Origin: a virus
Lineage: Duplodnaviria > Caudoviricetes
Reading direction: 5' to 3' (one strand)
DNA length: 64,000 bases
Virus record (IMG/VR): IMGVR_UViG_3300049009_000874
Span: 1 to 64,000 of that record
In this document: in pieces, positions 33,266 to 55,883 of the stretch
How positions within the stretch are numbered: position 1 is the first letter of the stretch
Layout of the letters: every line of letters starts with the position of its first letter
The notes under the pieces: generated by a model
The model's database searches: none
Told to the model about the DNA's origin: nothing
What the model saw: only the letters and a program-made list of their open reading frames with translations
Made by a program: the position numbers and the translations under genes

Positions 33266-33276
33266 GAACAAAACAC

Positions 33277-33642
33277 ATGCCTTTATATGCCTTCAGATGC
33301 AAGAAATGCGAGAAAGTTTGGGAAGAGATAGCAGACCACGACAAGCGCGGCAAGTACAGCGGCGTGTCATGCCCGGGCTGCAAGTCGAAATCCAAGGAAA
33401 AACTCCTTACCTCCTGCACTTTCAAGTTTTCCAACCCCGTGGGGACAGACAAGTGGAACAGCGATTCCACGGGTCATGACTTCAGGCACAAGTACAACAT
33501 GGAGCGACCCGGAGGGGTTTCCGAACAGAGGGCTTTCGCGGAGGAGAACTCCCACGTGGGCGCCAGACCATACCAGGAAGCCGAACGGTCGAACCCGATA
33601 AACGATATCGAAATCGACAGTTCCTGGGGCGAAGTAAAATAA
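33277..33642 (+). CDS. FmdB-family zinc-ribbon protein
   Basis: MPLYAFRCKKC...CPGCKS. Confidence 0.85.
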   Translation: MPLYAFRCKKCEKVWEEIADHDKRGKYSGVSCPGCKSKSKEKLLTSCTFKFSNPVGTDKWNSDSTGHDFRHKYNMERPGGVSEQRAFAEENSHVGARPYQEAERSNPINDIEIDSSWGEVK

Positions 33643-33721
33643 TTCCGAGCAGACCTTCCCAACCAAAACCAACCAGACTTATAATGCTAGTGGCAAACCA
33701 GAATTTCCACGGAGACAAACA

Positions 33722-35794: not shown

Positions 35795-35836
35795 CCGAAA
35801 GCTGTAAGCCGAACAAAAAAAGGAACGAGGTGATTT

Positions 35837-38928: not shown

Positions 38929-40284
38929 ATGAAGGTTGAAATCGTCGGTTTCGAGCATTTGCATTTACACTCCGACTTCTCCGTCCTCGACGGGCTTGGA
39001 ACGTGCGAGGAGTACGCCCTCCGCGCCACCCAGATAAACCAGAACTTCCTCACCATCAGCGACCACGGAATGCTCGGCGCCGTACCGAGGCAGATACGAG
39101 CCTGCGACAAGGTCTGCGACAAGTTCGGCAAGGACAAGCTTTCCCCCATATTCGCCACCGAGCTTTACGTCAACAGGCTTCAGCCGCAGAGCAACTCGCT
39201 CGAGGACATGCAGAAGTTCTCTGGAGACCTTTCCCCCGAAGAGTTGCTGGAGCTCCGCCCAAGCCCCCACCTCCTCGCCATAGCGCACAATGAGATCGGC
39301 TACAAGAACCTCGTGAGGCTCACCAGCTGGGGCTGGACCAAGGGGTTCTACCGCAAGCCGAGGGTGAACTACGAGCAGCTCGAGAAGCACAAGGAGGGCT
39401 TGCTCTTCACGAGCTGCTGCTACAACAGCGAGATCGGGCGGGCGTTCGAGTCCGGCGGCGAGGAGGCTGCGCTCTCCATGATCGACAGGTATGTCGGGAT
39501 GTTCGGCAGGGAGAACTATTTCCTCGAGATAATGCTGCTTGATTTCGTGAAGCAGAAGCCCTACGACGCCTTCATAGTCAAGGCTCACCAGAAGACTGGT
39601 CTGAAGATAATCCTTTCGAACGACGTCCACTACTGCCGCAAGGAGGACAGCAAGCTGCAGCGTCTCATGCTGATGGTGCAGACCGGCAGGACGATACAGG
39701 ACATAGAGAAAGCCATGAAGGAGGACTCCATGCAGGACTTCTTCGAGCTGCAGGACAGCAACCTCTGGATGAAGTCGGAGGAGGAGATCAACGAGAAGTG
39801 GCTGAGCCACTACAGCGACGTCATCCCTTACGAGATATTCTGCGAAGCCAAGAAGAACACGGTCGAGATTTGCAGGAAGGCGAAAGGGGTGCAGCTGGAC
39901 AGGAGCCTGAAGCTTCCCGTCTTCCCGGACTGCGACGAGAGGCTCAAGGAATATGTCGTCATCGGGTTCAGGGGCAGGAATCTCCCTTCGACCAGGGAAT
40001 ACAGGGACAGGATCAAGGAGGAGCTCAGCCTTATCATAAGGAAGGGGTTCAGCACGTACTTCCTCATCCAGAAGATGATGACGGACGAGGCTAGGAAATG
40101 GTGCAGGGAGAACGTCGGCGGCGACGGGACCCAGGCTGTGGGTCCGGGGCGCGGATCCGCTTGCGGTTCGCTGGTGTGCTACTGTCTAGGGATAACGGAC
40201 GTCGACCCGGTCTACGAAGGTCTGCTGTTCAGCAGGTTCATGAGCGAAGCCCGCGGGGGAAGGTCTATCTGCTTCGATGCCTGA
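38929..40284 (+). CDS. dnaE: DNA polymerase III alpha, N-terminal part (PHP domain plus first half of palm)
   Basis: HLHLHSDFSVLDG, SDHG, NDVHY, GPGRGSACGSLVCYCLGITDVDP, LLFSRFMSEAR, then stop. Confidence 0.92.
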   Translation: MKVEIVGFEHLHLHSDFSVLDGLGTCEEYALRATQINQNFLTISDHGMLGAVPRQIRACDKVCDKFGKDKLSPIFATELYVNRLQPQSNSLEDMQKFSGDLSPEELLELRPSPHLLAIAHNEIGYKNLVRLTSWGWTKGFYRKPRVNYEQLEKHKEGLLFTSCCYNSEIGRAFESGGEEAALSMIDRYVGMFGRENYFLEIMLLDFVKQKPYDAFIVKAHQKTGLKIILSNDVHYCRKEDSKLQRLMLMVQTGRTIQDIEKAMKEDSMQDFFELQDSNLWMKSEEEINEKWLSHYSDVIPYEIFCEAKKNTVEICRKAKGVQLDRSLKLPVFPDCDERLKEYVVIGFRGRNLPSTREYRDRIKEELSLIIRKGFSTYFLIQKMMTDEARKWCRENVGGDGTQAVGPGRGSACGSLVCYCLGITDVDPVYEGLLFSRFMSEARGGRSICFDA

Positions 40285-41332
40285 CGTTTCTGGCATGGAG
40301 GTCTATGTCTCTCTCGACCATGTCCTTCACCAGCGAAGAGAAGTTCGTTTTCGGTTTCCACCCTAGGCTTTCCCTGGCTTTGCCGGACACCCCCCTCAGC
40401 GCGTCGATCTCTAGCGGCATATTGAGGGAACTGTCTATCTCGACCTTACCCTTCCATTCCCCGAGACCTGCGCAGACGAACGCCTGGCTCAGGAATTCCT
40501 CGACGGAATGGGTCTCGCCCGTCGATATCACGAAATCCTCAGGGTCGTCATTCTGGAGCATCATCCACATCGCCAGGCAGTAGTCCTCGGCGTGACCCCA
40601 GTCCCGCATAGACGATATGTTCCCTAGCTGAAGCTTGCCTTCGGACAATCCGTTCTTCTTCCTGCCGATCCAGCTCGTTATCTTCCTTGTCACGAAATCC
40701 TCGCCCCGCCGCGGGCTTTCGTGGTCGAACAGTATTCCCGAGCAGGCGAACATCCCGTGGGACTTGCGGTATATGCTTATGAGGTTGTGGGCAGCCAGCT
40801 TGGATACGGCGTAAGGGGAGTTCGGGGACATGCATGTCCGCTCGTCCTGGAAGGCTTCGAGGTCGAGGAACTCCTTCGGGTCGACCTTCCCGCTCCGTTC
40901 CGCCCTGTTGCCGTCCTTGTCGATGAACGAGAAGCACGACCCGAACATATCGCTCGTCGAAGCCTGGTAGACCCTGGAGCGCCAGGAATGGTTGACGACG
41001 GCTTCGATGAGGTAGAGAACCCCCTTGAGGTCAACGTCTATCGTGTAGGAGGGCTGGATGAAGGACTCTCCGACATGGCTCTGGGCAGCCAGGTTGTATA
41101 TCTCGTCCGGCTTGTGCTCCGAAACGACCTTCCGCACGAACAACGGGTCGCATATGTCCCCCTGCACCACCGAGAACCTCCTGTGCCCCAGCACGGTCTC
41201 CAGCCTGGACATGTTGTTCGAGGACGACCTCCTCGAGATGCCGGTCACCTCGTATCCCTTGCCCAGGAGGATCTCCGAAAGGTAAGATCCGTCCTGTCCT
41301 GTGACTCCGAAAACCATGGCTGTTTTTGACAT
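40265..41332 (-). CDS. gmd: GDP-mannose 4,6-dehydratase (variant active-site residues)
   Basis: GVTGQDGSYL, YNLAAQSHV, SPYAVSK, HESPRRGEDFVTRKI, RDWGHA. Confidence 0.9.
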   Translation of the reverse strand: MSKTAMVFGVTGQDGSYLSEILLGKGYEVTGISRRSSSNNMSRLETVLGHRRFSVVQGDICDPLFVRKVVSEHKPDEIYNLAAQSHVGESFIQPSYTIDVDLKGVLYLIEAVVNHSWRSRVYQASTSDMFGSCFSFIDKDGNRAERSGKVDPKEFLDLEAFQDERTCMSPNSPYAVSKLAAHNLISIYRKSHGMFACSGILFDHESPRRGEDFVTRKITSWIGRKKNGLSEGKLQLGNISSMRDWGHAEDYCLAMWMMLQNDDPEDFVISTGETHSVEEFLSQAFVCAGLGEWKGKVEIDSSLNMPLEIDALRGVSGKARESLGWKPKTNFSSLVKDMVERDIDLHARNVRHRSR

Positions 41333-41419
41333 TTTTTTCCTTTTTGGTGTATTATCTGAAATAGTATTTTTTGCGAATATGTCATTTGAAAATTTAAAAA
41401 AACAAACTATATTGATTTT

Positions 41420-41839
41420 ATGGAAACTACAATCACCGTAGATCTCGGCACGATGCCGGATCTAATCTACATGATCATCAAGGACGAAACTTTATTCGCT
41501 GAATTGAAGGCGGAATTTCCAGATATTCTTGCCGACCTGACAACACTGAAGACCAACCCGAACTGCTCATGCAGGGGCAAGGTTGGCAAGTTCTTCTCCG
41601 ACAAAGTGGCTACCGATCCGAACATCTTGGAGAAGTACTACAAGGACAAGGCTGCGATAGTCAAGGAACTTGAAGCGATCAAGCTGAAAAGAGTCAACAA
41701 CGCAATCAACGGCAAAGTCTTCAAGGTGCAGCTCGGCGACGAGGCTTGGGCTAATTTCAACAAGACCATTGTTGGAAAAACCTTCAGAAGCTTCTCCGTT
41801 GTCCGAGAGTTCGACTACATGTGGGTATACTTCCTATGA
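41420..41839 (+). CDS. Hypothetical protein
   Basis: 139 aa, NPNCSC motif. Confidence 0.75.
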   Translation: METTITVDLGTMPDLIYMIIKDETLFAELKAEFPDILADLTTLKTNPNCSCRGKVGKFFSDKVATDPNILEKYYKDKAAIVKELEAIKLKRVNNAINGKVFKVQLGDEAWANFNKTIVGKTFRSFSVVREFDYMWVYFL

Positions 41840-42129
41840 TTGAGTCGTTTTTGATCTATCTGGTCGCGTGCCTTGGCGTCACCTACGCCTGGTCCGACAC
41901 CGATGTAGCGCGACCTTTCAGGAACCTGGTAGCCAGGATACCATATGTAAATGTCCCGATGCTCTGCCACGAGTGCAGCAGCTTCTGGTTCTCGTTGGGA
42001 ATCTCATTTCTGCTCAACCCGGTTGGCGAACTATGTGTTCCGTTTTCCGGGAATCTGATTTCCGCCTTTTGCGGCTTTTTCGCGAACCTGGTGTTCGTTC
42101 GAAACCGGTTGGTGGCATACAAGGAATAG
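41836..42129 (+). CDS. Small membrane protein (DUF1360-like CxxCxxFW)
   Basis: Hydrophobic segments; LCHECSSFWFS; ATGA overlap. Confidence 0.65.
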   Translation: MIESFLIYLVACLGVTYAWSDTDVARPFRNLVARIPYVNVPMLCHECSSFWFSLGISFLLNPVGELCVPFSGNLISAFCGFFANLVFVRNRLVAYKE

Positions 42130-42146
42130 GGATGACTTGAAATAGG

Positions 42147-42183
42147 GAAAAGGGCTGGCTTGATATTCAAGCCAGCCCTTTTC
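42147..42183. terminator. Bidirectional intrinsic terminator
   Basis: Perfect 17-bp inverted repeat GAAAAGGGCTGGCTTGA-TAT-TCAAGCCAGCCCTTTTC between convergent genes. Confidence 0.88.
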
Positions 42184-42187
42184 TCGT

Positions 42188-45100
42188 TTAGCAACCCTGA
42201 TCGTCATAGCCGTTGAAGAAGAACGTGTGGGTTGGAGGGTTTGGCGGCGAACCGGGATATGTGGCTGCCCTTGTGTGCGACAGCGTGCCCGAGCCGGCAT
42301 ATCCGCTGAGAGACACGGTTATAGAGGTTCCGACCGGAACATTTACGGCTCCAAACGAAATTGCGGACGACGAGTTGCTTATGGTGCCGCCCGGACCCCA
42401 GGATGTCGTGTAGCTCATCGATCTGGATCCCGGGGTAAGAGCGGAAGAGACGCAAGACGGGGAATTGTATGGATAAACGCAATCGCCGCCGCATCCGTAA
42501 GCCTGGAAGTAAATCTTGATCGTCAATGGCGGCAAGTTGCATGACCCTAAAATGCATTCTTCGCCCGGTTCGCAGTCGTTTCCGCATTCCCCGCAGTTTG
42601 CTTCGTCTGTCTGGAAGTACGAGCTGTCCCGGCAAGTCCCGGCGCAGCATGTTTGCCCCGCAGTGCAGGCGTTTCCGCATTCCCCGCAGTTTGCTTCGTC
42701 CGTCTCGAGGGAGCTGGTGGCGACGCATGAGCCGGCGCAACAAGTTTGTTCCGCGGTACAAGGTTGTCCGCAACCGCCGCAGTTTGCTTCGTCCGTCTGG
42801 AGGGAACTGGTGGCAATACATTCCCCGCAGCATGTTTCGCTTTCAGCGCAAACGATTCCGCAGTTCCCGCAGTTGGCTTCATCCGTCTCGAGGGAAATGG
42901 TGTCGATACATGACCCGGCGCAACATGTTTCCCCGGCGGCGCAAGGTTGTTCGCAACCGCCGCAGTCGGTTTCGGAGGTCTGGAAGTACGAGCTGTCCCG
43001 GCAAGTTCCGCCGCAACATTCCCCGCCAGCGCAAGGTTGTTCGCAGCCTCCGCAGTTGGCTTCGTCCGTATCGGTGTTCACGCACGACCCGCCGCAACAT
43101 GTTTCCCCGGCGTCACAAGCGATGCATAGCAGACCGCAGTTTGATTCGTCGGTATCCGTATCCTTGCAGTCTCCGCCACAGCAATGACCCGTAATGCATA
43201 CATTTCCGCAAGATCCGCAGTTACTATCGTCGTTCCCGTAGATGTCTTTGCATTCCCCTCCGCAACATTCCAAGTCTCCGGTGCATTTGTTCGGACATGA
43301 ACCGCAATGGTCCTTGTCGTTGTCGAGATTTTTGCAAGAGCCATCGCAGCATGTCTGTTCCGCGAGGCAAACATTCGGACATGTTCCGCAATGACCTTCA
43401 TCGTTCTTTGTGTCTACGCATGTATCGTTCGGAAAATCACCGCAACATGTAAGTCCGTCGGGGCATGAGCCGCCGCAAGGTGCGCATGTCGGGAAATGCT
43501 CGGATTCGTCTTCGTAAACAGATGGACAGCCACCATTGCAAAGCGTGCCCCCTGGGTGTTCATGATCGCAACAGGTATAGTTGCTTGGATTAGCCCCATA
43601 AGTTCCAAGAATGTCGTAGTTGCAACCTACTGCGTCGTGCCCCCATGGAGCCGTGCATTTATATTCCGAAGGGTTATCATAGTCAAGATACCTGCAACTT
43701 GCGCATGGTCCTTCTCCGGCGGAACAATATCCCACAGAAGGGCATGCATTTCCATGTGCCTCCGCAAAGGCTCCCGTGCATTCCGGGACATTGCAGGAGT
43801 CGTAGCATTCGCAACTGACGAGTTCCCATTGCAGGTTATTCACGTTCCCTATCGCCTTGTATTCGCAGCCTCCGAAGCATGTTTTTGCCGGCAGCGAGGG
43901 ATTTGGCGGCGGATCTGATGGAGGACATGCGTCATAGGTGCATGGTATGGTCGTTCGTTGACCCCAGAAGGTTGGCGCAGATCCCAACAAAAAAGCTTGT
44001 TGGGATTCTGTCGGAAGTTTGCATGTTCCGCACGGAACACACTCGCCATTCACGCATTTTGTCGTTGGAGGATCGCCCGACTCAGGGCATTCAGCACCAC
44101 TTTCCACTGCGTTGCATTTATTCCCGCAACCGCCGCAGTTGTCGTTGTCCGTATTTGGGTCTACGATAGTCGCGGTCGGTTTTGGTAGATCGCCATAAAT
44201 ATTTGGAGGACCCCACTTTGGGCAGCAAATATCAGTGCCAACAGTTCTAATCCCGCAACCGCCGCAGTTGTCGTTGTCCGTCAAAGTGTTAACGGGTTCC
44301 CCATCACAGCACTTTTGTTGCACTTGATCGGATGTATCCACAGCGTTCCCGCAACCGCCGCAGTTTTCGTCATCGGTGTTTGGGTCTACTTGAGTGGCTG
44401 TCGGTCTTGGTAGCTCGCCATAAATATCTAGTGGACCCCAATGTGGGCAGCAAATCTTAGGAGCTTCAACCCTAACGCCGCAGGCGCCGCAGTTGTCGTC
44501 GTCAGTCAAAGTGTTAACGGGTCCCCCATCACAGCACTTTTGTTGCACTTGATCGGATGTATCCACAGCGTTCCCGCAACCGCCGCAGTTTTCGTCATCG
44601 GTGTTTGGGTCTACTTGAGTGGCTGTCGGTCTTGGTAGCTCGCCATAAATATCTAGTGGACCCCAATGTGGGCAGCAAATCTTAGGAGCTTCAACCCTAA
44701 CGCCGCAGGCGCCGCAGTTGTCGTCGTCAGTCAAAAGGCTGACTGGTTCACCCTCACAGCATTTTTGTTGCACTTGATCGGATGTATCCACAACATTCCC
44801 GCAACCGCCGCAGTTCTTGTCATCGGTGTTTGGGTTTACTTGGGTTGCGGTTGGTGGTGGTGGATCGCCATATGCATCTGGAGGACCCACATGCGGGCAG
44901 CAAATCTTAGGCGCAAGAGCCCTAGTGCCGCAGGCACCGCAGTTGTCGTCGTCAGTCAAAAGGCTGACGATCTCACCATCACAGCATTTCTCTTTTACAT
45001 ATGGCGATGTGTCCGCGACATTCCCGCAACCGCCGCAGTTTTCGTCATCGGTATTCGTGTTGGTAATAAAGAAAGTTGATTCGTCTGGAGCGCCAGCAAT

Positions 45101-48100
45101 AACAACTGGTTTCGGACAGCAGGATGTCGGATCTGTTGGATTGTCTGGATCGGCTGTGTCTCCGCAACTCAAGCAATTTTCATTTGACCCTTTTGCCGTC
45201 GGAACCCCGTCGCAGCAAAGTTCTTCGGCTACTACTTCGCAATCGCCGCAATTTTCAAGATCACTAAGTACATCTATGCACGAGCCACCGCAGCATTTTG
45301 TTCCTTCTCCGCAAGCGTCGCCGCAATCGGAACAGTTGGTGTCTGTGCCGACGTCGGTGCATTCGTTTTCGCAACACATCTGTCCTTCCGTGCATGAGTT
45401 CGGACAGTCACCGCATGGATTGTCAATGCATGTTCCAGAACAGCATTTCTGTTCCGGATAGCACACTGGAGTTTGGCAAGACGTGCAACGTCCATTCCCG
45501 TCACAGTATTGATCCGCGGTGCAACATGCCTTGTTGTTCCCAGAGCCACAGCAAATCGTTCCGGCGTCGCAACACTCGCCGTTGCAGCAGGTCGTTCCGG
45601 GAACTGTACATTCGCATTCCACGCACCCGCCGCCTTCTCCGCAATAATCGGAATCCGCGCAGCACCCGTCATTGCAGCAAACCTTGCAGCATGTCGTTCC
45701 GCCTTCGCAGCATGTTTCGCCCTCGGCGCACGGAGAAGGGCATTCTGCGCAAACTCCATCTTTGCAAGCCTGTCCTTCAGCACAAGGGGCTGCATCACAA
45801 CTACCGCAATGGGCGGTGTCGGTCTGCATGTCAACGCATTGCGAATCACAACATGTCTTTCCGTTTGGGCAAGGATTTGGAACGCAAACGCTTCCGTCCC
45901 CGCTGCAACCGGCGGCGCAGTTCTCCGCCCCGATGTACTCTCCTATCTTCGCCTGGGTTTCAGCGTTGAACGATGCTTTTGGTATACAGTAGGTTGGCAT
46001 ATCTTGTCCTTCTATGTTATTTACACAAAAATATATATCTCCGACACACGCCAATTTATCGTCAACACATGACAATCTGTCGTCCGCGCAATACGTGTAG
46101 TCCGGTTCTTGTCCGCAAGTGCCATAAAAAGCAGAATACCCAGGCTCCTCGTGTAAAACCCAAGCACCTCCCACGGCATCAAAATAACAAGATCCATCAC
46201 AGCTTACTGTATTTCCAACGCATGAAGCCACGAAAGCGACATCGTTCGGTTCGGGTTGTGGAGGCATTCCCTGTTCGTATCCCTGACACTCACATTCTGG
46301 TTCCGCACAGTTTCCCAAGAAGCATTTCGGAACTGTAAATGTGTCGCCTGGAGGTTCTTGGCATGTCAATCCGCAGATCCCGCAGTTGTCGGGATCAGTT
46401 TTTAGGTTTCTGCAAACGCCATTGCAGCATTGCCACAGATTGATCTGGTTGATTCCTTGCGGACACTCTATTCCGCAGTCACCACAGTTGTACATGTCGT
46501 TGAGAGGGTTCTTGCAAACCCCACCGCAACATATAAATCCAGGAGCGCAAGCGTATCCGCAAGAGCCGCAGTTGCTCTCGTCAGACCATATGTCGATACA
46601 TGAATTGTTGCAGCAAGCGGTTCCAGCCGCAAGACATGGAGGGTTGCATGCCAAGCAAACTCCATTTACGCACGAGTGTCCTCCGACACATACGGTTCCG
46701 CAATTCCCGCAGTTGTTGTTGTCGGTGTTTCTGTTCACGCAATTGCCGTCGCAACAGGTGTTTCCGGCAGGACAGCAATTGCCGTTGCAGCATGTTTCGT
46801 TAATGCCACAAGGATGGTAGCAAGATCCACAATGGTTTACGGAAACATTTAAAGGTATGCATTCGTAATTGCAGCACTGAATGTTGAGGGCAGGATCGAA
46901 AGCGCATTGGAAGTTGCAACTTCCGCAATTAAATGTCGAGTCTTTTATGTTTTGGCATCCCCAGGCTGTTTCGTCATAACAACATGTTTCTCCTTCCGCA
47001 CAAACACTGCCGCAATATCGGCAATTGTTAGGATCGGTCCGTAAGTCTTTGCACTCGCCATCGCAGCATGTCTGTGGAGTCGTGCTTCCCGGACCGCTGC
47101 AAAATGTAACGCAATCTCCGCAAAAATCCGGGTCGTTGTAGATGTCCTTGCAAGTTGGTGTTCCATCGACGGTGCAGCAGCCGTCTTCTGTGCAGCATTC
47201 GCCGTTGCAGCAGAACCCCAGAGGAAATAGACACGGAATTCCGCAACCGCCGCAATTTGCGTTGTCGTCATTTGTGTTTTTGCACTCACCGCCACAGCAT
47301 TCTTGTCCTTCTCCGCATGCCGGGACGCAACTGGCGCATTCGTAGGTTACGACCTGACCATCGGTACCATCTGCCGTCGGCGCTTCTCCTGGACAGTTGC
47401 ATCCCTGTGGGCATGTCGCAGTCGCAGTCCATGATCCAGCCAACGCCCTTACTGTTCCGTTTTCATCCTCGTCTGTTGACAATGCGTGGAATGAGGGATA
47501 CATGCACACGCAGTTTTGAAAAGCAGTTTGTCCAGACAGGCAAACATCCGATGGCATTCCGGGAGCGACTTTTCCAGTACAACCAGCGGGGCAGTCATCG
47601 GGTGTAGTCCAGCTTCCAGTAAGAAAAACAGGATTCGAAGGGTCTTCTGGACAAGAAGGACTTGGCAACCAAGTCCAGTTAATTGTAACATTGCAATCTT
47701 CTGGAAGGCACTGACCACATGGTTCGAGAGCTTCAGGTGGAGACCATATTTTATATTCGGCACCAAGACATGTTGGGCGATCAGGAACTCCGATAGCTTC
47801 ATAATCAAAACAGCAAGTCGAATCTCCAGTTGAACAATTTTCTTCTGTTGGCACAAGACTAGTCAAGTAAAAACCCAACTGAGCATTTCCATTACTAGGA
47901 TCGTTAGCAAGGCAGGTGTAAGTTTTACAGCACCCAGTAGTAGTAGTACATGGCTCTGGACTCCATGTCAGGTAAAAAAAACCTGTAGATTCTGGGCTTC
48001 CATCGCAAGGTATATTTGGAGGGCTATCGACAGAGCAATCTGTAACTGACGGGTATTGCGATTGAAACACATACTCATTTTCAGTCGAACAGACATAACG

Positions 48101-48784
48101 GCTACAACATCCAGTAACGGTTTCTTCACCCCAAGTCCAAGAACAGTTGTTCAACGCGCAAGGGTCTTTGCAGACACCATTGTCGCATATTTTACCGGAC
48201 GCACATGGAACACCGCAACCACCGCAGTTCGATGTGTCGGAACCCATGACGTTCACGCAAGAACCGGAACAGCAGCTTTCCCCGGCAAGGCAAGTATTTC
48301 CGCAATAGCCGCAGTTCGCAACATCTGTCTGGAGTGATTCCGTGTCGATACAATCGCCGGTGCAGCATGTTTCCGAAGGTTCGCAAGCTATTGTGCAAGA
48401 ACTGCAATGGTCATGATCAGTTTGCAGATCCACGCAAACATTGTCACAGCATGTCTCTGATGGTTCGCATTGAACGCCACCACAGAGGCAGCAGGTGCCG
48501 GTGCATTCGACTTGAACGATACCTTCGCAGCACCCGATTAGGGTTTCATTCGATCCTTCGAAGTCAGGATCGCATGGAGGAGGATTTGTCGGCAATCCGG
48601 GCGGCGGAGAAGATGAGCATCCTTCCGGACAAGGAACAGTCAGAACCCACTGGACATTGTCAAGTGGTCCGCCACATTTTCTCGGGTCCCAAACTACAGC
48701 TTCATAAGAGGCAGAGTGTCCGCAACCTTTTTCGGCAAGTGCGAAAACTATATCCCAATTCTCCACCAGTTTTGGATCTATCAT
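42188..48784 (-). CDS. Giant 2198-aa Cys-rich protein made of Stig1-like repeats
   Basis: Dozens of D-x-x-(N/H)-C-G-x-C-G-x-x-C...CC-x-G-x-C units; no signal peptide or TM seen. Confidence 0.85.
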   Translation of the reverse strand: MIDPKLVENWDIVFALAEKGCGHSASYEAVVWDPRKCGGPLDNVQWVLTVPCPEGCSSSPPPGLPTNPPPCDPDFEGSNETLIGCCEGIVQVECTGTCCLCGGVQCEPSETCCDNVCVDLQTDHDHCSSCTIACEPSETCCTGDCIDTESLQTDVANCGYCGNTCLAGESCCSGSCVNVMGSDTSNCGGCGVPCASGKICDNGVCKDPCALNNCSWTWGEETVTGCCSRYVCSTENEYVFQSQYPSVTDCSVDSPPNIPCDGSPESTGFFYLTWSPEPCTTTTGCCKTYTCLANDPSNGNAQLGFYLTSLVPTEENCSTGDSTCCFDYEAIGVPDRPTCLGAEYKIWSPPEALEPCGQCLPEDCNVTINWTWLPSPSCPEDPSNPVFLTGSWTTPDDCPAGCTGKVAPGMPSDVCLSGQTAFQNCVCMYPSFHALSTDEDENGTVRALAGSWTATATCPQGCNCPGEAPTADGTDGQVVTYECASCVPACGEGQECCGGECKNTNDDNANCGGCGIPCLFPLGFCCNGECCTEDGCCTVDGTPTCKDIYNDPDFCGDCVTFCSGPGSTTPQTCCDGECKDLRTDPNNCRYCGSVCAEGETCCYDETAWGCQNIKDSTFNCGSCNFQCAFDPALNIQCCNYECIPLNVSVNHCGSCYHPCGINETCCNGNCCPAGNTCCDGNCVNRNTDNNNCGNCGTVCVGGHSCVNGVCLACNPPCLAAGTACCNNSCIDIWSDESNCGSCGYACAPGFICCGGVCKNPLNDMYNCGDCGIECPQGINQINLWQCCNGVCRNLKTDPDNCGICGLTCQEPPGDTFTVPKCFLGNCAEPECECQGYEQGMPPQPEPNDVAFVASCVGNTVSCDGSCYFDAVGGAWVLHEEPGYSAFYGTCGQEPDYTYCADDRLSCVDDKLACVGDIYFCVNNIEGQDMPTYCIPKASFNAETQAKIGEYIGAENCAAGCSGDGSVCVPNPCPNGKTCCDSQCVDMQTDTAHCGSCDAAPCAEGQACKDGVCAECPSPCAEGETCCEGGTTCCKVCCNDGCCADSDYCGEGGGCVECECTVPGTTCCNGECCDAGTICCGSGNNKACCTADQYCDGNGRCTSCQTPVCYPEQKCCSGTCIDNPCGDCPNSCTEGQMCCENECTDVGTDTNCSDCGDACGEGTKCCGGSCIDVLSDLENCGDCEVVAEELCCDGVPTAKGSNENCLSCGDTADPDNPTDPTSCCPKPVVIAGAPDESTFFITNTNTDDENCGGCGNVADTSPYVKEKCCDGEIVSLLTDDDNCGACGTRALAPKICCPHVGPPDAYGDPPPPTATQVNPNTDDKNCGGCGNVVDTSDQVQQKCCEGEPVSLLTDDDNCGACGVRVEAPKICCPHWGPLDIYGELPRPTATQVDPNTDDENCGGCGNAVDTSDQVQQKCCDGGPVNTLTDDDNCGACGVRVEAPKICCPHWGPLDIYGELPRPTATQVDPNTDDENCGGCGNAVDTSDQVQQKCCDGEPVNTLTDNDNCGGCGIRTVGTDICCPKWGPPNIYGDLPKPTATIVDPNTDNDNCGGCGNKCNAVESGAECPESGDPPTTKCVNGECVPCGTCKLPTESQQAFLLGSAPTFWGQRTTIPCTYDACPPSDPPPNPSLPAKTCFGGCEYKAIGNVNNLQWELVSCECYDSCNVPECTGAFAEAHGNACPSVGYCSAGEGPCASCRYLDYDNPSEYKCTAPWGHDAVGCNYDILGTYGANPSNYTCCDHEHPGGTLCNGGCPSVYEDESEHFPTCAPCGGSCPDGLTCCGDFPNDTCVDTKNDEGHCGTCPNVCLAEQTCCDGSCKNLDNDKDHCGSCPNKCTGDLECCGGECKDIYGNDDSNCGSCGNVCITGHCCGGDCKDTDTDESNCGLLCIACDAGETCCGGSCVNTDTDEANCGGCEQPCAGGECCGGTCRDSSYFQTSETDCGGCEQPCAAGETCCAGSCIDTISLETDEANCGNCGIVCAESETCCGECIATSSLQTDEANCGGCGQPCTAEQTCCAGSCVATSSLETDEANCGECGNACTAGQTCCAGTCRDSSYFQTDEANCGECGNDCEPGEECILGSCNLPPLTIKIYFQAYGCGGDCVYPYNSPSCVSSALTPGSRSMSYTTSWGPGGTISNSSSAISFGAVNVPVGTSITVSLSGYAGSGTLSHTRAATYPGSPPNPPTHTFFFNGYDDQGC
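42580..43150 (-). repeat. ~90-93-bp (30-31 aa) tandem units near the 3' end of the Cys-rich gene
   Basis: CCGCAGT anchor at 42591, 42684, 42777, 42867, 42960. Confidence 0.8.
44120..45050 (-). repeat. About four near-identical 225-bp (75-aa) tandem units inside the Cys-rich gene
   Basis: GGGCAGCAAAT recurs at 225-bp spacing (near 44220, 44445, 44670, 44895). Confidence 0.9.
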
Positions 48785-50064
48785 TTTGTTTCCACCTTTT
48801 CAGATGGAGTTATGTTCTGTACTTTTTGCGATGCCAATATTTGGTCTGGTATAACCTTGAATCTCAACTTGTGCGACTTGAAGATTTCAATCACTTCATC
48901 TTTTTTCCCTGGATCTATTTCCCTGTTCGAAACGATCTCTATGAAATCGTTTCCGCAATTCACCTGCCTTATCTCCGTCAGACCGGTTTCCATCAGCTTC
49001 TTCTTGTATTCGTTGATCGAATGCCCTTTTATGGCGAAGGGACGGTTCTCCAGGAACTTGAATTCCCTGTACAACCTTCCGCAAGAGCATCTCTGGTATT
49101 TATCGCCTATCTTGCACCTGTCTCCGTTCCAGAATTTGACGAAAGGACAAGCCAAGGAGAAGTAATCGGTCGACACGAGCCTTTCCTCGTTTTCGACACA
49201 CCAGGAGAGGTTATCCATCAAATGATAGTTCTTGTCCCTGCATGTAAAGAATGAGGAGCCACCATCCCAACATCTCATATGATCGCATATATGTGACACA
49301 TAGTTGTTGTCGAGAAGAAACTTAGAGTCTTCATCTAGAATTTTTTCATTACTATTACTTAACAAGTTGCACAGTTTCCCCTTATAGTTTTCCTTTTTGA
49401 TGTAAGAGCATATTTTTTTTATTTGCGGTCCGGGAGCGAATATCACATCCATTTTTTTTGCATTCAAATATTTGAGTAGATATTTTTGGAATACTTCTTC
49501 TTTTTCTTTTTGGAGTTTCGTGTTTGCGTAATGGACCATTGCGGTTCTTTTCGTTCCGTGGTGTTCCATGAAGTTCTTGCTTTTCGATGTGTTGCTTATG
49601 GGTCTTGGACCACTTCCGAACGAGGAGTTGAAAAAGTACATGATGTGTGGATTCTGTGGTATTTCGTATTCGTCTAGAATTAGGTCGTAGTGGTTTTCTC
49701 CTTCGATGAAATAAAGGAAAGGTTCCCATCGCAAGTACTCGAATCCCTCGCCGGTGGTGCTTCCGCTGCTTTTCATCGGCATGGATTCAGCTTCCAGGCA
49801 TTTCACGTACCACTTGCTTTTGTCTGCGAGATCCTTTTTCACAAAAAAAGGCAGGTCTTTCTTGTTCGCGTAAGCTTCGGAATGCCTCTCAGCCCAGGAC
49901 GATATGTTTCTTTTCAGTATGTCTATCGTCTCGGCGACGAGTTCCTCGTCGTGCAGGAGTAGGTCTTTGCATATTGGCTTGTAGTCGTAGGGAATTTGCG
50001 TGGAAGGATCGGCGAAGTTTTTCCACTTCTGGATGAACTGTTTTATTTCCTGTGTATTCCGCAT
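48781..50064 (-). CDS. Phenylacetate-CoA ligase/CapK-like adenylate-forming enzyme
   Basis: KSSGSTTG P-loop, FVKFWNGD, CSCGR. Confidence 0.7.
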   Translation of the reverse strand: MRNTQEIKQFIQKWKNFADPSTQIPYDYKPICKDLLLHDEELVAETIDILKRNISSWAERHSEAYANKKDLPFFVKKDLADKSKWYVKCLEAESMPMKSSGSTTGEGFEYLRWEPFLYFIEGENHYDLILDEYEIPQNPHIMYFFNSSFGSGPRPISNTSKSKNFMEHHGTKRTAMVHYANTKLQKEKEEVFQKYLLKYLNAKKMDVIFAPGPQIKKICSYIKKENYKGKLCNLLSNSNEKILDEDSKFLLDNNYVSHICDHMRCWDGGSSFFTCRDKNYHLMDNLSWCVENEERLVSTDYFSLACPFVKFWNGDRCKIGDKYQRCSCGRLYREFKFLENRPFAIKGHSINEYKKKLMETGLTEIRQVNCGNDFIEIVSNREIDPGKKDEVIEIFKSHKLRFKVIPDQILASQKVQNITPSEKVETK

Positions 50065-50735
50065 CCGTCCCTCAGAAAGAAATTAAGTGTTACCTTGTTG
50101 GTGTGACTCCATTTCACATCGGGAACCCATCTCGAGACTATGTCCCAGTCGTTGCACTTTTTAACGTAGCGCCAACCTCCGTGTTTTTCTATGAGGTATC
50201 TAGTGTGCATAATCTCAGAAGTATCTATATAACCAGCCTTTGGAATATCGTTGTGAATTCTCTCCCCGACAACTTTTTTGTTGGAATCGTAAAGTCTGGT
50301 TCCCGTGTAGCACATGTCGCTTTTCGTTTCGGTTATGGTTCTGTAGAGGGACTCTATGTGGTCCGGCTCATACCAGTTGTCGTCGTCCAGATAGGCTATG
50401 AGATCGTGCTTCGTGTTCATTATGGCGAAGTTCCTGGGAGCCCATCCTGCTCCGCTGTGGTTGACCGGGAGCGTGAAGAACTTGAACCTCTCGTCCTTGG
50501 AGCATATGTCCTCGAAATATTTCTGGGTGTATTTGCAGTTGTCGCATTCCAGGCATGTCCTTTCGAAATTGCTGAAAGTGCAGGCTTCGGAGCATCCGTC
50601 CTTGACGACGTAGCAGTCGAAGTTCTTGAATGTTTGTTTCAGAAGTGATTCCGTGCACCTTTCTAGCCACTCTGGGCTTGAGTGGTAGGTAGGCAGGCAT
50701 ATAAGAACTTTATCCAGACATCCATGTCTTGACAT
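50043..50735 (-). CDS. Glycosyltransferase family 2
   Basis: LPTYH, SLLKQT, VVKDG, PRNFAI, IAYLDDDN; GGAGG SD. Confidence 0.88.
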   Translation of the reverse strand: MSRHGCLDKVLICLPTYHSSPEWLERCTESLLKQTFKNFDCYVVKDGCSEACTFSNFERTCLECDNCKYTQKYFEDICSKDERFKFFTLPVNHSGAGWAPRNFAIMNTKHDLIAYLDDDNWYEPDHIESLYRTITETKSDMCYTGTRLYDSNKKVVGERIHNDIPKAGYIDTSEIMHTRYLIEKHGGWRYVKKCNDWDIVSRWVPDVKWSHTNKVTLNFFLRDGCGIHRK

Positions 50736-50782
50736 TTACCTCCTTGTGTAAAAATCTAACGAGAAACTATCTTTGTTTCTCG

Positions 50783-51781
50783 TTAGATTTCGTCAACAGG
50801 TCCGGGAACTGGTCCCATCTTTTTCAGCGCCTTGTGAGCGTGGTGGCGGTGGCGGTGTCCGCCGATCGATTTCGAAAGGGCTGAATCGCCTTCGCCATCT
50901 TCGCCGTCATGGTCCTCATCGCCTTCGCCGTCATGGTCCTCATCGCCTTCGCCGTCATGGTCCTCATCGCCTTCGCCATCTTCGTCGTTTTCCATGTCTT
51001 CATCGTCTTCATCTTCATGATCTTCATCGCCTTCGTCACCTTCCATGTCTTCATCGCCTTCATCTTCATGGTCTTCTTCACCTTCGCCTTCTTCGTCACC
51101 TTCCATGTCTTCATCCCCTTCACCTTCGCCGTCAATTTTGAACTCATCGTCTTCCTCTTCGCCATTGCTTGAGTCGCCATCCATATAGCCCATCTCGTTC
51201 ATCATTTTCTGGAATGTGTTGTTGACTTTTATCTCCTCGATGATGGCTTTGATGGTGTTCTCGTGCTTGCAGGCTTCCGACAAGAACGAATCTATGAGGT
51301 TGCTTCTTTTTAGTTCCATGACAAGCTGTGACATGTTCGCTTGCGACTTGGAGCATAGATGTACTGCTTCCTTGATCTGACCATAGGACATGTTGCTTGT
51401 TTCGTTTCGCATCCCGCTTATGAAGCTGGAATTGCTCATGTTCTTCGTGTTCCTCAGCCATTCGGACACGCTTGTGGTTTTCGGCCAAGTCGGAAGCTTC
51501 TCGTGTTCTGATGACTTAACGACGGTTTCTGGCTCGTAAACCAATTCCTTGTCTCCCATGTCCGCGAACCCATCAGATGACTTGTTTGGGTTTTTTGCCA
51601 TTTTGTTCGCCATATATGGCTTTGGAGCCATGTTCGATTTTGCCCCGCCAGCGTTCTTGTCCACTTCAGCCTTAGGTGGAGCGGACGAGCTTGGTCCCTT
51701 GTAATCCGGAACCATCTCGGTTGCTGGGGTTTTGATTTTTTTGTCGTGGGTCAAATATTCTTGAAAACTTCTGAATGCCAT
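50783..51781 (-). CDS. Protein with capsid-targeting-like N-terminus, very acidic repeat region and His-rich tail
   Basis: MAFRSFQEYL; GEGDEDHD repeats (24 bp x3 at 50900-50971); HRHRHHAH. Confidence 0.8.
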   Translation of the reverse strand: MAFRSFQEYLTHDKKIKTPATEMVPDYKGPSSSAPPKAEVDKNAGGAKSNMAPKPYMANKMAKNPNKSSDGFADMGDKELVYEPETVVKSSEHEKLPTWPKTTSVSEWLRNTKNMSNSSFISGMRNETSNMSYGQIKEAVHLCSKSQANMSQLVMELKRSNLIDSFLSEACKHENTIKAIIEEIKVNNTFQKMMNEMGYMDGDSSNGEEEDDEFKIDGEGEGDEDMEGDEEGEGEEDHEDEGDEDMEGDEGDEDHEDEDDEDMENDEDGEGDEDHDGEGDEDHDGEGDEDHDGEDGEGDSALSKSIGGHRHRHHAHKALKKMGPVPGPVDEI

Positions 51782-51860
51782 GATTGCTCCATAATAATTC
51801 TTGTTAGGATGACTAATCCTATATAGAAGGATTTCTTTTGAAAATAATTCCGTTTGGGTG

Positions 51861-51889
51861 TTGATTTTTTAAATTGTATCTGTTAAATT
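51861..51889 (+). promoter_or_regulatory. Sigma70-like promoter
   Basis: TTGATT-17 nt-TAAATT with extended TG. Confidence 0.5.
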
Positions 51890-51920
51890 TCTCGATCTGT
51901 GCTTAAAGGATTTTTCACCC

Positions 51921-52445
51921 ATGAAGGAGTTTGGCATGAATCAGTATGTCGTATATGGATTTTTGGCTGTTTCCGTAGCAATCAACGGATATCAGGTCTA
52001 CAGAATGGATAACATGAGGGAAGTGGTTAATCTGGTGACCCAGAAAGACCAGTTGACCCAGTCGGGATACAGCGAATTGCTTTACAACCACATAAACAGC
52101 TTGAGAAACGACCAGATTGAGGCTTCGAGGAACCAGGGGAAGATCGAGGGAATCATCTCCGTCGTCAACAACGCGAAACCGGAAGCCAACGAGATAAGTT
52201 CGATCTGGCATAGCGGCTACTATAGAGGCATGGACCAGGTTGAGTTTGTCAGGGTTATGGCTTATGAGGATGGATACCACAGAGCTACCGAGGACATAAG
52301 CTGCCCAGCAGGGAATTCGACCAACAATAAAACCAAAATTGGAACCAAGCCCGAGACCAAGCCCGAGACCAAGCCCGAGACCAAGCCAGAGACCAAGCCA
52401 GAGACCAAGCCAGAGACCAAGCCAGAGACCAAGCCGATCAAGTAA
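51921..52445 (+). CDS. Membrane-anchored protein with TKPE repeat tail
   Basis: N-terminal hydrophobic helix; (TKPE)x7. Confidence 0.75.
   Translation: MKEFGMNQYVVYGFLAVSVAINGYQVYRMDNMREVVNLVTQKDQLTQSGYSELLYNHINSLRNDQIEASRNQGKIEGIISVVNNAKPEANEISSIWHSGYYRGMDQVEFVRVMAYEDGYHRATEDISCPAGNSTNNKTKIGTKPETKPETKPETKPETKPETKPETKPETKPIK
52344..52436 (+). repeat. 12-bp tandem repeat ACCAAGCC(C/A)GAG x7 plus a partial copy
   Basis: Read directly. Confidence 0.95.
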
Positions 52446-52459
52446 TTCGTCGATCAGGC

Positions 52460-52692
52460 TGTCACTTTGCGCTTCTCAAAAAAACTAAAGTGCATTGGAA
52501 TTCGTTCTGCGGTGGCGCGCAGGGCTCTCTCACACGGAGACATACATGAGAAAACAAGTCGTGATGTCTTTTAACGAGGTTTTTAGTTTACCTTATCCTG
52601 TAGATATTCGCCAAAATTGATCGAGGTTGGGATCGAACCTTGAGCGACTTGTAGGCAAAGTGCGACAAAAAGGGCTTAAACGCCCTTTTTGT
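52460..52692 (+). ncRNA. Candidate ~210-230 nt structured RNA (rod with central bubble, 6S-like?)
   Basis: Nested arms 52460-70/52655-67, 52475-79/52640-44, 52513-17/52609-13, 52520-23/52597-600, 52538-43/52564-69; ends in a terminator. Confidence 0.45.
52665..52692. terminator. Bidirectional intrinsic terminator
   Basis: ACAAAAAGGGC-TTAAAC-GCCCTTTTTGT perfect 11-bp inverted repeat. Confidence 0.85.
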
Positions 52693-53093
52693 TATTTGTG
52701 CTCTCTGTTTCTTATGAGCAGTTCGCCGACGACTTCTATCTTGCCGACCAGTTTCTGGAACTTGCTCTGGTTTACTTTTTCTATTTTTTCCATGTAAGAG
52801 TGGAGTTCCGAGCACAACCTCTTGTATTCCTCTTGCATTTTTTCTTTGTCGAACTTGCCTTGCGCTACCTTCTTGTAATATGGTAGTTTCACCGAGAAGT
52901 GGTCATACGTGAGCATCGCTATGCCTCCCTTGGATTTGGCGCTACTTGCTATCTTTTCAGCCCCATCGTGTCTCTTTTTGGCGAACTCATCAATGGTAAG
53001 CTCTGATTTCTGCTCATTGAGAACACCAGAAAGTAAAAGCATTTGCGCGCGTGTCTCTTCGTTCATTTCGACCTCTGTTTGTATGGAATGCAT
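52692..53093 (-). CDS. Hypothetical protein
   Basis: 133-aa ORF; GAGG SD favours start 53066; TATAGATA upstream. Confidence 0.7.
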   Translation of the reverse strand: MHSIQTEVEMNEETRAQMLLLSGVLNEQKSELTIDEFAKKRHDGAEKIASSAKSKGGIAMLTYDHFSVKLPYYKKVAQGKFDKEKMQEEYKRLCSELHSYMEKIEKVNQSKFQKLVGKIEVVGELLIRNREHK

Positions 53094-53144
53094 TATCTAT
53101 AGTAGCTTGATGGAATATTTCTCTTATTGGAAAAGGCAAAAGCC

Positions 53145-55883
53145 ATGCTTAATTCTTACGAAAAGATAGAGAAACTTCTCTGGCACATATTCGACCGCAA
53201 GAGCCTTTCCGACAAGCACAGGAAGAGGCTGGAGTGGGAACTCCGCGAGATAGATGTCCAAGGGAAGTCCGACCACCTCATAAAGATGTTCAAGGACAAG
53301 GTTCGGTGTGACGGAAACGAGAACAACCTGATTTCATTCTGGCTCCTTGGCTTGTGCCAAGAATTCGACGTGGACCGCGACCCGAAATTCACTCAGGGCG
53401 ACATGCCGGACATAGACGTCGACTATCTCAGCGAGGTCAGGGACTACCTGAAGAACAAGTGGGCTTGCGAGACGTTTGGCGTGGACTACGTCTGCAACAT
53501 CGGCAACTACACGACCTTCGGAATCAAGAGCGCGTTGATCGACATGGCTAGGGTTCACGGTCTTCCAAGGGGTGATATGCTCGAGCTAACCAAGAACCTC
53601 GACGCCAAGGACGACGAGGGGAAGACGATGACCTGGGAGTCGGCGATGAACCTCTACCCGAAACTCAAGGAGTACTGCGACGCCAACCCGGACGTTGCCG
53701 AGTCGGCGCGCAAGCTCATAAACAGGAACAGGGGCATGGGTCAGCACGCCGGGGGTCTGATCATATCGTCGATGCCACTCCACGATCTGGTGCCGCTCGT
53801 GAAGAGGAAGGACAATCCGCAGGCGTCAGCCTGGGTCGAGGGTCTGAACGGACAGGACCTCCAGCCAGTCGGTCTGGTGAAGTTCGACCTCCTCGTGATC
53901 TCGAACCTGCAGCAGATATCGAGTTGCTGCGAGCTCGTGAAGAAAAACCACAACATGGACAGCATATGCGCCCTCCCCGGGCAGTCAGACTGGAGCGACG
54001 TCCAGAGGTGGAGGAACGACCCGAAGTCTTTGGCTATGGCTGACGTCGGGGACCTGAAGTGCATATTCCAGTTCGACAGCGAGGGCATCAGGAGGCTGGT
54101 CAAGTCCGGGGGCGTGGACCGTTTCGAGGATCTCGTGGCGTATACAGCCCTCTACAGACCCGGTCCGCTCGGAATGCTCATGCATGAAAGGTACACCAAG
54201 AGGAAGAGGGGCGAGGAGTCCTACGAGTTGCACCCGCTGGTCCAGCCAATACTCGGCGACACGTACGGGGTGATGGTGTACCAGGAGCAGATCATGCGCA
54301 TACTGAACAAGGTGGGCGAGATCCCGCTGCGGGACTGCGAGATCGTGCGGAAGGCTATATCCAAGAAAAAGGTCGAGGCATTCCAGAAGTACAAGAACAT
54401 GTTTGTCTCAAACGGACAGAGGAACCTCCAGACGACGGAGGAGGACATCATCAGCCTTTGGAATCAGGTCCAGGCTTTTTCTGAGTACGGATTCAATAAA
54501 AGCCATGCCGTCGCGTACACCTACGTCTCGGCGAGGCTGCTTTACTTCAAAGCCCATTACCCGCATGAGTTCTACACCTCGGTTCTGGGCTGCGAGACCT
54601 TGTCGGAGAAGATCAAGGAGTACAAGATAGAAGCCAAGAACCACGGCGTCGACATGCACGGCGTCGACATCAACAAGTCGAAGTCCACCTTCGAGCTGGT
54701 TGGGGATTCCATCTATTACGGTCTATCGAACGTCAAGGGCGTAGGTCAGGTTCCGGCGAAGAAGATCGTCGACAACCAGCCCTACGCCGGGTTCGAGGAT
54801 TTCCTCACGAGGTTCGGCACGGACGCCAACATAGTGAAGTGCGTCGTTGGTCTAAGGTGCTTCAGTGACTCGAACCCGATAACCTTGTGGAAGTTCTACG
54901 AGCACTTCAAGGAATGCCAGAAAAAGCTCGACGACAAGAAGAAAAGGTTCCTGGCGAGCATGGAGCAGTACGACGTCGAATTCCTCGAGCTTTTCCCCGG
55001 AGAGACCAGAAGCCTTTCCGAATTCCACGGCGACAGCCCATTCGACGGACCGGAATGGGCTGGCTTCGACATCGACGAGGTCATAGAGACCGAGAAGACC
55101 GTCGAGTGCGACCAGAGCCAGGGCAAGCCGAAGCTCGAGATGGAGTATGTCCCGATCCAGGGCACCGACGACTTCGTCGAGGTCCAGACGATCAGGAACT
55201 ACAAGTCGATCAAGGTGAAAAAGAACTGGAACAGGCTGAAGGAGCTGAAGAGGCTGTGGTCGAGAAGGGAAAAAGCCATGGCTAGGCTCGAGGACTCCAA
55301 GTCGTTGTCGCTGCCGACGCTCGCCTCGTTCAAGCCAAACGATTTCGAGATAGACAAGGATTTCGCCAAGGAACTGCGGAACAAGGTAGCCTGCGAGATG
55401 AAGTATTACGGTTTCGCCTGGATACACAACGTGGAGAACAGCCCGGACTTCAAGGGCAACACGTTCCAGACGCTGAGGGAGAACGACGGCTGCGTCTGCC
55501 CCGTCGAGGTCGAGGTCGTCTCGAGGAAGGTTTGCAAGAGCAAGAAGGGCAATTCCTACCTGCAGCTCGAGGTCGAGGACGCCATGGGCGAGAAAAACCG
55601 CCTGAACGTCTGGGAGGACGATGTTGCCCGCTGGGACAGAGAAATGAAGAAGGGTAACTTACTTAGGTTGAGGCTGATGCCGCCGGACAAGGGCTTCTCA
55701 ACGTATACCCTGGAACAGAACAAGAAGATGCCGAACAAGGGCTGGGCTTACAGGTTTCCGACCAAGGACAGCGACTACAGGGTTTTCGTGATGAAGCCGC
55801 CGGTGTCGGCGGAGGACAAGTACCAGACCGAGGACGAGGTTCTGGAACAGTTTGGAAATTGCATAATGGAGGACAAGAAATGA
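53145..55883 (+). CDS. dnaE: DNA polymerase III alpha, C-terminal part (catalytic aspartates, fingers, HhH, OB)
   Basis: MPDIDVDY, GQHAGG, VKFDLL, IFQFDS, ALYRPGP, YQEQIM, YGFNKSHAVAY, GLSNVKGVG. Confidence 0.92.
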   Translation: MLNSYEKIEKLLWHIFDRKSLSDKHRKRLEWELREIDVQGKSDHLIKMFKDKVRCDGNENNLISFWLLGLCQEFDVDRDPKFTQGDMPDIDVDYLSEVRDYLKNKWACETFGVDYVCNIGNYTTFGIKSALIDMARVHGLPRGDMLELTKNLDAKDDEGKTMTWESAMNLYPKLKEYCDANPDVAESARKLINRNRGMGQHAGGLIISSMPLHDLVPLVKRKDNPQASAWVEGLNGQDLQPVGLVKFDLLVISNLQQISSCCELVKKNHNMDSICALPGQSDWSDVQRWRNDPKSLAMADVGDLKCIFQFDSEGIRRLVKSGGVDRFEDLVAYTALYRPGPLGMLMHERYTKRKRGEESYELHPLVQPILGDTYGVMVYQEQIMRILNKVGEIPLRDCEIVRKAISKKKVEAFQKYKNMFVSNGQRNLQTTEEDIISLWNQVQAFSEYGFNKSHAVAYTYVSARLLYFKAHYPHEFYTSVLGCETLSEKIKEYKIEAKNHGVDMHGVDINKSKSTFELVGDSIYYGLSNVKGVGQVPAKKIVDNQPYAGFEDFLTRFGTDANIVKCVVGLRCFSDSNPITLWKFYEHFKECQKKLDDKKKRFLASMEQYDVEFLELFPGETRSLSEFHGDSPFDGPEWAGFDIDEVIETEKTVECDQSQGKPKLEMEYVPIQGTDDFVEVQTIRNYKSIKVKKNWNRLKELKRLWSRREKAMARLEDSKSLSLPTLASFKPNDFEIDKDFAKELRNKVACEMKYYGFAWIHNVENSPDFKGNTFQTLRENDGCVCPVEVEVVSRKVCKSKKGNSYLQLEVEDAMGEKNRLNVWEDDVARWDREMKKGNLLRLRLMPPDKGFSTYTLEQNKKMPNKGWAYRFPTKDSDYRVFVMKPPVSAEDKYQTEDEVLEQFGNCIMEDKK

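Follow-up and report, generated by a model that had tools for sequence, protein, structure and literature searches.

A DnaE-type DNA polymerase encoded by two genes, divided within its catalytic centre, in an uncultured huge phage

The IMG/VR record IMGVR_UViG_3300049009_000874 is a 189-kb genome fragment of a huge uncultured phage with a completeness of about 39% (CheckV), and its positions 1 to 64,000 form the stretch of DNA analysed here, referred to as the window. In this window, the gene of a DnaE-type (C-family) DNA polymerase is divided into two genes, dnaE-N and dnaE-C, and the cut separates the GS motif and the arginines of the catalytic centre from the metal-binding aspartates. Such a division, with no intein at the cut, had been proposed in the initial annotation of this DNA, and open reading frames (ORFs), Pfam profiles and alignments to structures of the Protein Data Bank (PDB) agree on it. 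The two products, chains N and C, are likely to associate non-covalently as the two subunits of one DnaE whose active site is composite, as suggested by conservation among relatives and by AlphaFold models of the single chains. A complex of two chains is likely because the catalytic centre is cut and no intein or intron was found that would rejoin the halves.

The cut lies between the triphosphate-binding and the metal-binding residues

The two genes and their parts are located in the window as follows:

38929 to 40284, plus strand: dnaE-N, PHP domain and first part of the palm, 451 amino acids from the ATG at 38929
38956 to 39534, plus strand: PHP domain (Pfam PF02811, E 2.7e-34, residues 14-206)
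40141 to 40254, plus strand: triphosphate-binding part, GPGRGS and the FSRF..R segment, arginines aligned with Escherichia coli R390 and R396
40255 to 40281, plus strand: tail of N, nine residues GGRSICFDA, a shortened form of the RGG and strand-like tail of relatives
53145 to 55883, plus strand: dnaE-C, palm stub, catalytic aspartates, thumb, fingers, HhH and OB fold, 912 amino acids
53145 to 53396, plus strand: head of C, 84 amino acids, a degenerate copy of N residues about 340-430
53406 to 53888, plus strand: metal-binding part, PDIDVD and KFD, with the aspartates and KFD invariant in 71 relatives

In the whole 189-kb record, the profile PF07733 (DNA_pol3_alpha) was matched only twice, by gene N at profile positions 17-98 and by gene C at positions 99-259. 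The cut is thus at position 98/99 of the profile; in E. coli numbering it falls between R396 and D401. Both ORFs read as first described: gene N stops just after GRGS and FSRFMSEAR, ending in GGRSICFDA, with GPGRGS at 40141-40158 and the FSRF..R segment at 40222-40254, and gene C carries PDIDVD (53406-53423) and KFD (53880-53888). The alignment of chain N to E. coli Pol III alpha ended at residue 396, on which N residue R446 falls, and that to the Thermus enzyme at residue 458. The alignments of chain C began at E. coli residue 396 and Thermus residue 460, and its D95 and D97 fall on E. coli D401 and D403; from the sequence, KFD was taken as the counterpart of E. coli D555. Alternative open starts exist for both genes (GTG 38917 for dnaE-N and TTG 53127 for dnaE-C); a matching Met in relatives supports the ATG at 38929, and relatives likewise support the ATG at 53145. 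From the stop of N to the start of C the distance is 12.86 kb, with both genes on the plus strand.

A direct comparison with an undivided gene was provided by LR756511, an uncultured 595-kb record which is the closest one in the phage collection and encodes a single intact DnaE of 1179 amino acids. Chain N aligned to residues 1-433 of this protein and chain C, from its residue 92, to residue 435 onwards, each at 52% identity. According to this alignment, nine extra residues end chain N and about 84-91 extra residues start chain C.

The remaining domains are distributed over the two chains in the usual order. Nine metal ligands define the proofreading PHP domain of Mycobacterium tuberculosis DnaE1 (PMC5636811), and all nine are kept in chain N when aligned to that enzyme (5lew), being invariant or nearly so across 63 relatives. 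The PHP domain of chain N probably proofreads DNA. Chain C holds the finger domain (PF17657, E 1.6e-38), the HhH (PF14579, E 1.4e-11) and, at residues 774-893 of its AlphaFold model, a C-terminal OB fold (Z about 9 to OB folds, VIA-align). The model of chain C matched DnaE structures with Z 22-23 (VIA-align), residues 4-596 corresponding to residues 311-933 of 5lew (Z 22.6). Like the single-chain DnaE proteins of M. tuberculosis (DnaE1, 5lew) and Thermus aquaticus (2hpi), the divided enzyme has the same domain order, active-site motifs and nine PHP ligands; unlike them, it is encoded by two genes and has an extra 84-amino-acid head and a short tail.

Both halves are also intact, as had been noted at first: the ORFs are long, and active-site residues on both sides of the cut are invariant in relatives. 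In the N ends of 34 relatives, the invariant positions are R, G and S of GRGS, F, S, R, F and R of FSRF..R, and the following R-G-G.

The extra sequences at the cut appear to be derived from DnaE

The start of gene C had been described as a degenerate copy of the end of gene N. A profile-profile comparison by hhalign of 27 C heads with 34 N ends bore this out (probability 93.5%, E 2.3e-7, 67 columns), and because of this match the head is regarded as a degenerate copy. In the window, N-E-N-N (53316-53327) occupies the place of GRGS in the head, and the arginine segment is absent. The same holds for the heads of the 27 relatives, which form a conserved segment of 81-88 amino acids without the arginine segment and with an invariant N-x-N-N (N58, N60, N61). 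Mean column identity was 55% in the head and 56% in the whole C chain; the head is as conserved as the rest of C and is therefore under selection, a working part and not a relic. Conservation of this duplicated stub in related phages, a check proposed at the outset, is thus seen in all 27 heads. In the AlphaFold model of chain C alone (mean predicted local distance difference test, pLDDT, 81.1), the head is helical with a pLDDT of about 90, and it superposes onto the canonical palm helices of DnaE structures (VIA-align).

At the other side of the cut, the last arginine of chain N is followed in all close relatives by an invariant G-G and then by a short stretch of alternating hydrophobic residues, behind which most of them have an N-I/M-D-P motif; the subclade of the window has a shortened tail. 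By its pattern, this tail looks like a degenerate copy of the catalytic strand from which the aspartates were lost. In the AlphaFold model of chain N alone (mean pLDDT 84.7), the last 16 residues, the nine-residue tail included, have a pLDDT below 50.

The degenerate head on C and the apparent degenerate strand on N fit the origin suggested in the initial annotation, a duplication followed by complementary loss. This origin, starting from a partial duplication of dnaE, is considered probable. After the region was duplicated, one copy would have lost its 3' part and the other its 5' part, and the remaining overlap would have decayed. The helical head of C, which lacks GRGS and the arginines, and the strand-like tail of N, which lacks the aspartates, most likely now serve as built-in elements for docking or for completing the fold.

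No element that would rejoin the halves was found

By Pfam, no intein domain was detected in chain N or chain C, although the same profiles recognise a contiguous intein as well as true split-intein halves elsewhere in relatives. No Rfam family was matched at E 0.1 or better within 38-57 kb of the window. As a candidate intein start, the CFDA at the end of chain N was rejected: relatives have I, V, K, Q, L or another residue in place of the Cys, and the nine-residue tail aligns with their strand-like tail and not with intein block A. Similarly, the head of C does not have the terminal His-Asn plus Cys/Ser/Thr of an intein C-fragment and is homologous to DnaE palm helices. We take the split-intein site of the cyanobacterial DnaE to differ from the position of the cut in the window. 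A simple sigma-70 scan of 52400-53300 returned no promoter for C, such a scan being uninformative for a phage.

These results bear on the explanation that the halves are joined after all, either by a split intein that is cryptic or atypical, or by trans-splicing or ribosomal bypass acting on the RNA. Inteins, split inteins and homing endonucleases are abundant in the gene family, relatives have bypass-like inserts elsewhere in N, and a Cys is indeed present in the N tail of the window. However, neither this tail nor the head has the features of an intein fragment, as outlined above, no intein domain or intron was found, and the gap that would have to be bridged varies between 1 and 13 kb and is mostly coded on the other strand. 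Joining of the halves is therefore considered very improbable.

A very large group of uncultured huge phages has the same split

To place the arrangement among relatives, IMG/VR was scanned for N-type genes. This identified 61 loci in which the N-type gene ends at the same place (51-100% identity), so that the split point, which the initial annotation had proposed to examine in related phages, is conserved. Both halves were held by 34 loci, and in all of these N lies upstream of C on the same strand, at a spacing of 0.97-12.9 kb. Five records of 225-381 kb contain exactly one N-type and one C-type gene each, with the break at profile position 98/100. In a large protein collection, more than 1200 N-type clusters (250-797 amino acids) and at least 100 C-type clusters without a PHP domain (about 880-930 amino acids) were present, and an identical copy of the window's arrangement occurred on a second contig, L004.

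A pseudogene, in which the two ORFs are remnants of a dnaE broken by cargo insertion, or a misassembly could account for the 12.9 kb of accessory genes on the other strand that separate the halves in the window, and the record is an incomplete metagenomic contig. Yet 61 independent IMG/VR contigs have the same cut, as do hundreds of protein clusters drawn from several sources, the ORFs are long and intact, the active-site residues are invariant on both sides of it, and the second contig repeats the arrangement exactly. Since the 61 loci, the five large records and many protein clusters share the split, misassembly and pseudogene formation were set aside as extremely unlikely.

The split form also extends beyond the close relatives. 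In a search of 1.8 billion representatives, N-only proteins stopping 6-40 residues past the same arginine were found in lineages 27-38% identical; several of them share the R-G-G tail, and one distant lineage (L066, L067) also has the head. For the genomic context of these distant forms, the related-locus search recovered L066 and L067 for one lineage and nothing for protein P0322. When INPHARED was searched by tblastn with N, C and two distant N-type proteins for named cultured phages that have the split, only single-chain DnaE genes and the uncultured LR756511 were obtained.

In a tree of the N part, the split clade of the window is sister to three single-chain forms, LR756511 included, and both groups are nested in a well-supported clade together with other split forms. 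The tree requires 8 changes of state, at least 3 of which are forced by well-supported branches, and a constraint holding the 11 nearest split forms together was not rejected (approximately unbiased test, p-AU 0.108). The split is an old clade character of a very large group of uncultured huge phages, plus lineages about 30% identical.

A composite active site is the favoured explanation

In the favoured explanation, the C-family polymerase would consist of two proteins, each with a gene of its own and translated independently. Chain N would supply the PHP domain, the palm helices, the GS motif and the two arginines holding the triphosphate of the incoming deoxynucleotide, and chain C the three metal-binding aspartates, the thumb, the fingers, the HhH and the OB fold; the chains would bind without covalent joining, and one active site would be built from both. 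In the model of chain C alone, pLDDT is below 50 at residues 89-104 (PDIDVD), 200-209 and 235-256 (KFD). These poorly modelled catalytic strands and the equally uncertain end of chain N fit parts that fold only on the partner.

Three points weigh against this explanation. In the model of C alone, the head occupies with high confidence the place that the helices of chain N require, so that it would have to give way in the complex unless chain C works with its own head. The invariant N-x-N-N of the head could, judged by its sequence, be a substitute phosphate-binding motif. In addition, the window encodes a family A DNA polymerase domain (PF00476, E 3.5e-27; 7080-7850, plus strand) within an open frame of 478 amino acids, so that the phage owns a second polymerase; because of this and the completeness of about 39%, the split DnaE is only a candidate for the replicase. 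A family B polymerase (PF00136) was not matched in the 189-kb record, again with the restriction that this record is about 39% complete.

In an alternative explanation, chain C alone polymerises by means of its own head, with N-x-N-N replacing the GS motif, and chain N is a detachable PHP proofreader whose palm remnant merely serves docking. The superposition of the confidently modelled head on canonical palm helices, the invariance of N58, N60 and N61, and the retention of all nine PHP metal ligands in N would agree with such a division of labour. It does not readily account for the palm remnant being among the most conserved stretches of N, nor for the core GS-motif residues, F-S-R-F and the last arginine being invariant even in lineages about 30% identical. 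Moreover, both arginines are absent from the head, and the catalytic strands are modelled poorly in C alone. We consider this alternative unlikely.

A further reading, which we regard as possible but doubtful, concerns the age and geometry of the complex: the split DnaE would be an old, separate class of two-subunit C-family replicase in which the disabled head and tail interlock the chains in a pseudo-symmetric swapped palm, and LR756511-type genes would be re-fusions. The two working parts, the helices of N and the strands of C, would then pack against each other, and so would the two disabled ones, the head of C and the tail of N.

Comparison with known divided enzymes

Among published cases, the split Pol III alpha of Iyer et al. 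(2021; Viruses 13:63, PMC7824862) comes closest. This "minimal" enzyme was predicted computationally in group 2.2 jumbo phages and consists of an N-terminal NTP-binding and a C-terminal Mg/DNA-binding protein, which are encoded by distant genes and expected to reconstitute a single enzyme. The cut in the window likewise lies between the NTP-binding and the Mg/DNA-binding subdomains. However, the minimal enzyme comprises the catalytic core only, lacks the PHP and the other domains of Pol III, and occurs alongside a family B polymerase (PMC7824862), whereas the enzyme of the window is a full-size DnaE with the PHP domain on N and the thumb, fingers, HhH and OB fold on C. Duplicated degenerate modules flank the cut in the window, unlike in the minimal version, the two groups being compared by description only. 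The full-size DnaE with PHP, the duplicated modules at the cut and the lack of a family B polymerase match in the record, about 39% complete, set the present enzyme apart from that case. Surveys of bacterial C-family polymerases, as one part of the literature, describe no intein-less DnaE split.

Two further systems are functional analogies. Dassa et al. (2009; PMC2677866) described the cyanobacterial split-intein DnaE and metagenomic 'fractured' DnaE genes, the pieces of which are ligated by protein trans-splicing. As in the fractured genes, which consist of two or more pieces and can have a free-standing endonuclease gene between them (PMC2677866), relatives of the phage show such fractures elsewhere in the C gene. 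Unlike in the split-intein DnaE, there is no intein motif at the cut of the window, and the extra sequences are copies of DnaE itself. In Aeromonas phage Aeh1, the essential ribonucleotide reductase subunit NrdA is split into NrdA-a and NrdA-b by the mobE endonuclease and functions without splicing; both its assembly and its activity depend on the C- and N-terminal tails at the break (Crona et al., 2011; PMC3045599). The window is similar in that a phage enzyme is fragmented into two genes with extra tails at the break. It differs in the enzyme and in the source of the tails, which stem from insertion of a mobile element in Aeh1 and appear to stem from duplication of the gene itself in the window. 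Also unlike the Aeh1 nrdA/mobE arrangement, the gap of the window has no recognisable endonuclease, though one is present in the gap of the relative L025.

The region between the halves

The gap between dnaE-N and dnaE-C is mostly coded on the opposite strand and contains the following features:

40265 to 41332, minus strand: GDP-mannose 4,6-dehydratase gene (PF16363, E 2.8e-105), converging on dnaE-N with a 20-nucleotide overlap with its 3' end
42188 to 50735, minus strand: cargo, encoding a 2198-amino-acid Stig1-repeat protein, a 427-amino-acid ORF and a family 2 glycosyltransferase
50783 to 51781, minus strand: gene X, 332 amino acids, conserved, mostly disordered, with a long acidic tail rich in Asp, Glu and Gly

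The 2198-amino-acid protein holds 16 Stig1-like Cys-rich repeats and recurs only in the closest relatives, L008 and L009, while the glycosyltransferase is also found in L012. The separation of 13 kb given in the initial annotation is correct for the window and is not a general property of the split: it results from lineage-specific cargo, and relatives have gaps of 1-9 kb. Gene X is present in the gap of all 34 loci holding both halves. It has no Pfam or PHROG match and no fold match from the ESM Atlas, where its model has a pLDDT of 0.39. The homologue of gene X in LR756511 is located about 2.3 kb upstream of the intact dnaE, with flanks syntenic on both sides. The four genes just upstream of dnaE-N (33181-38618, plus strand) are also syntenic with LR756511, at 40-66% identity.

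None of the nine scanned ORFs in the gap of the window matched an endonuclease family; the gap of L025 contains a LAGLIDADG gene. The space between the halves probably became a collecting place later on for cargo genes and homing endonucleases.

Inserts, inteins and fractures in related dnaE genes

Of some 60 related loci, about half have a tiny insert near the 5' end of dnaE-N, within the PHP motif H-L-H-L-H / (S/T)-D-F-S; it breaks the frame or adds a stop, with the protein sequence conserved on both sides. The inserts measure 7 nucleotides in 12 loci, 8 in 11, 6 in 4 and 5 in 1. With three exceptions, they begin directly behind the last His codon with TAG or TGA; in the exceptions, 6-nucleotide inserts in L037, L039 and L044, a TAA follows a Leu codon further on. 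Four loci have an insert of 40-47 nucleotides with a GC-rich hairpin. Examples are found at L005:9973-10020, L020:2601-2650, L037:6602-6650, L013:9943-10025 and L063:10030-10125. By their sequence, the inserts look like sites of programmed frameshifting or of ribosome hopping of the kind seen in T4 gene 60. The PHP motif of the window (38947-38994) has no insert.

Inteins occur in both genes of relatives. The C genes of L013 (12294-16534) and L028 (13910-17965) are fractured by true split inteins around a free-standing endonuclease, which is of the LAGLIDADG type in L013 and TnsA-like/DUF7487 in L028. A contiguous intein, about 410 amino acids long, is present in protein P0005, which is 98% identical to the window's chain C; the latter has none. 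Within the GS motif of N, an intein is inserted between G-R-G and S in L047 (12194-12541), L072 (12398-12517), P0293 and P0294, the Ser of the motif being the first residue after the intein.

In the lineage about 30% identical, the head is encoded by its own small ORF (L066:12379-13800, L067:12332-12900), followed by a short intein-like stretch whose first residue is Cys in L066 and Ala in L067. The L066 locus continues with the gene of a TnsA-like endonuclease and then with a short ORF which enters the catalytic motif through a change of frame at ATA-TAG. Judging from these sequences, the position immediately ahead of the aspartate strand may be a hot spot of insertion.

Implications

Replicative polymerases are usually seen as single catalytic chains, and here the nucleotide-binding and the metal-binding residues are on different polypeptides. 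In a full-size DnaE, this design has persisted throughout a very large group of huge phages. Where an annotation pipeline expects a single dnaE gene, such phages will be under-called or mis-called. If true, the composite site would represent natural complementation inside a Pol-beta-like nucleotidyltransferase core, and the divided gene would be a worked example of how duplication, degeneration and complementation bring about gene fission, here in a gene that inteins and endonucleases have also heavily colonised. The split DnaE could, in addition, be a template for split-polymerase tools.

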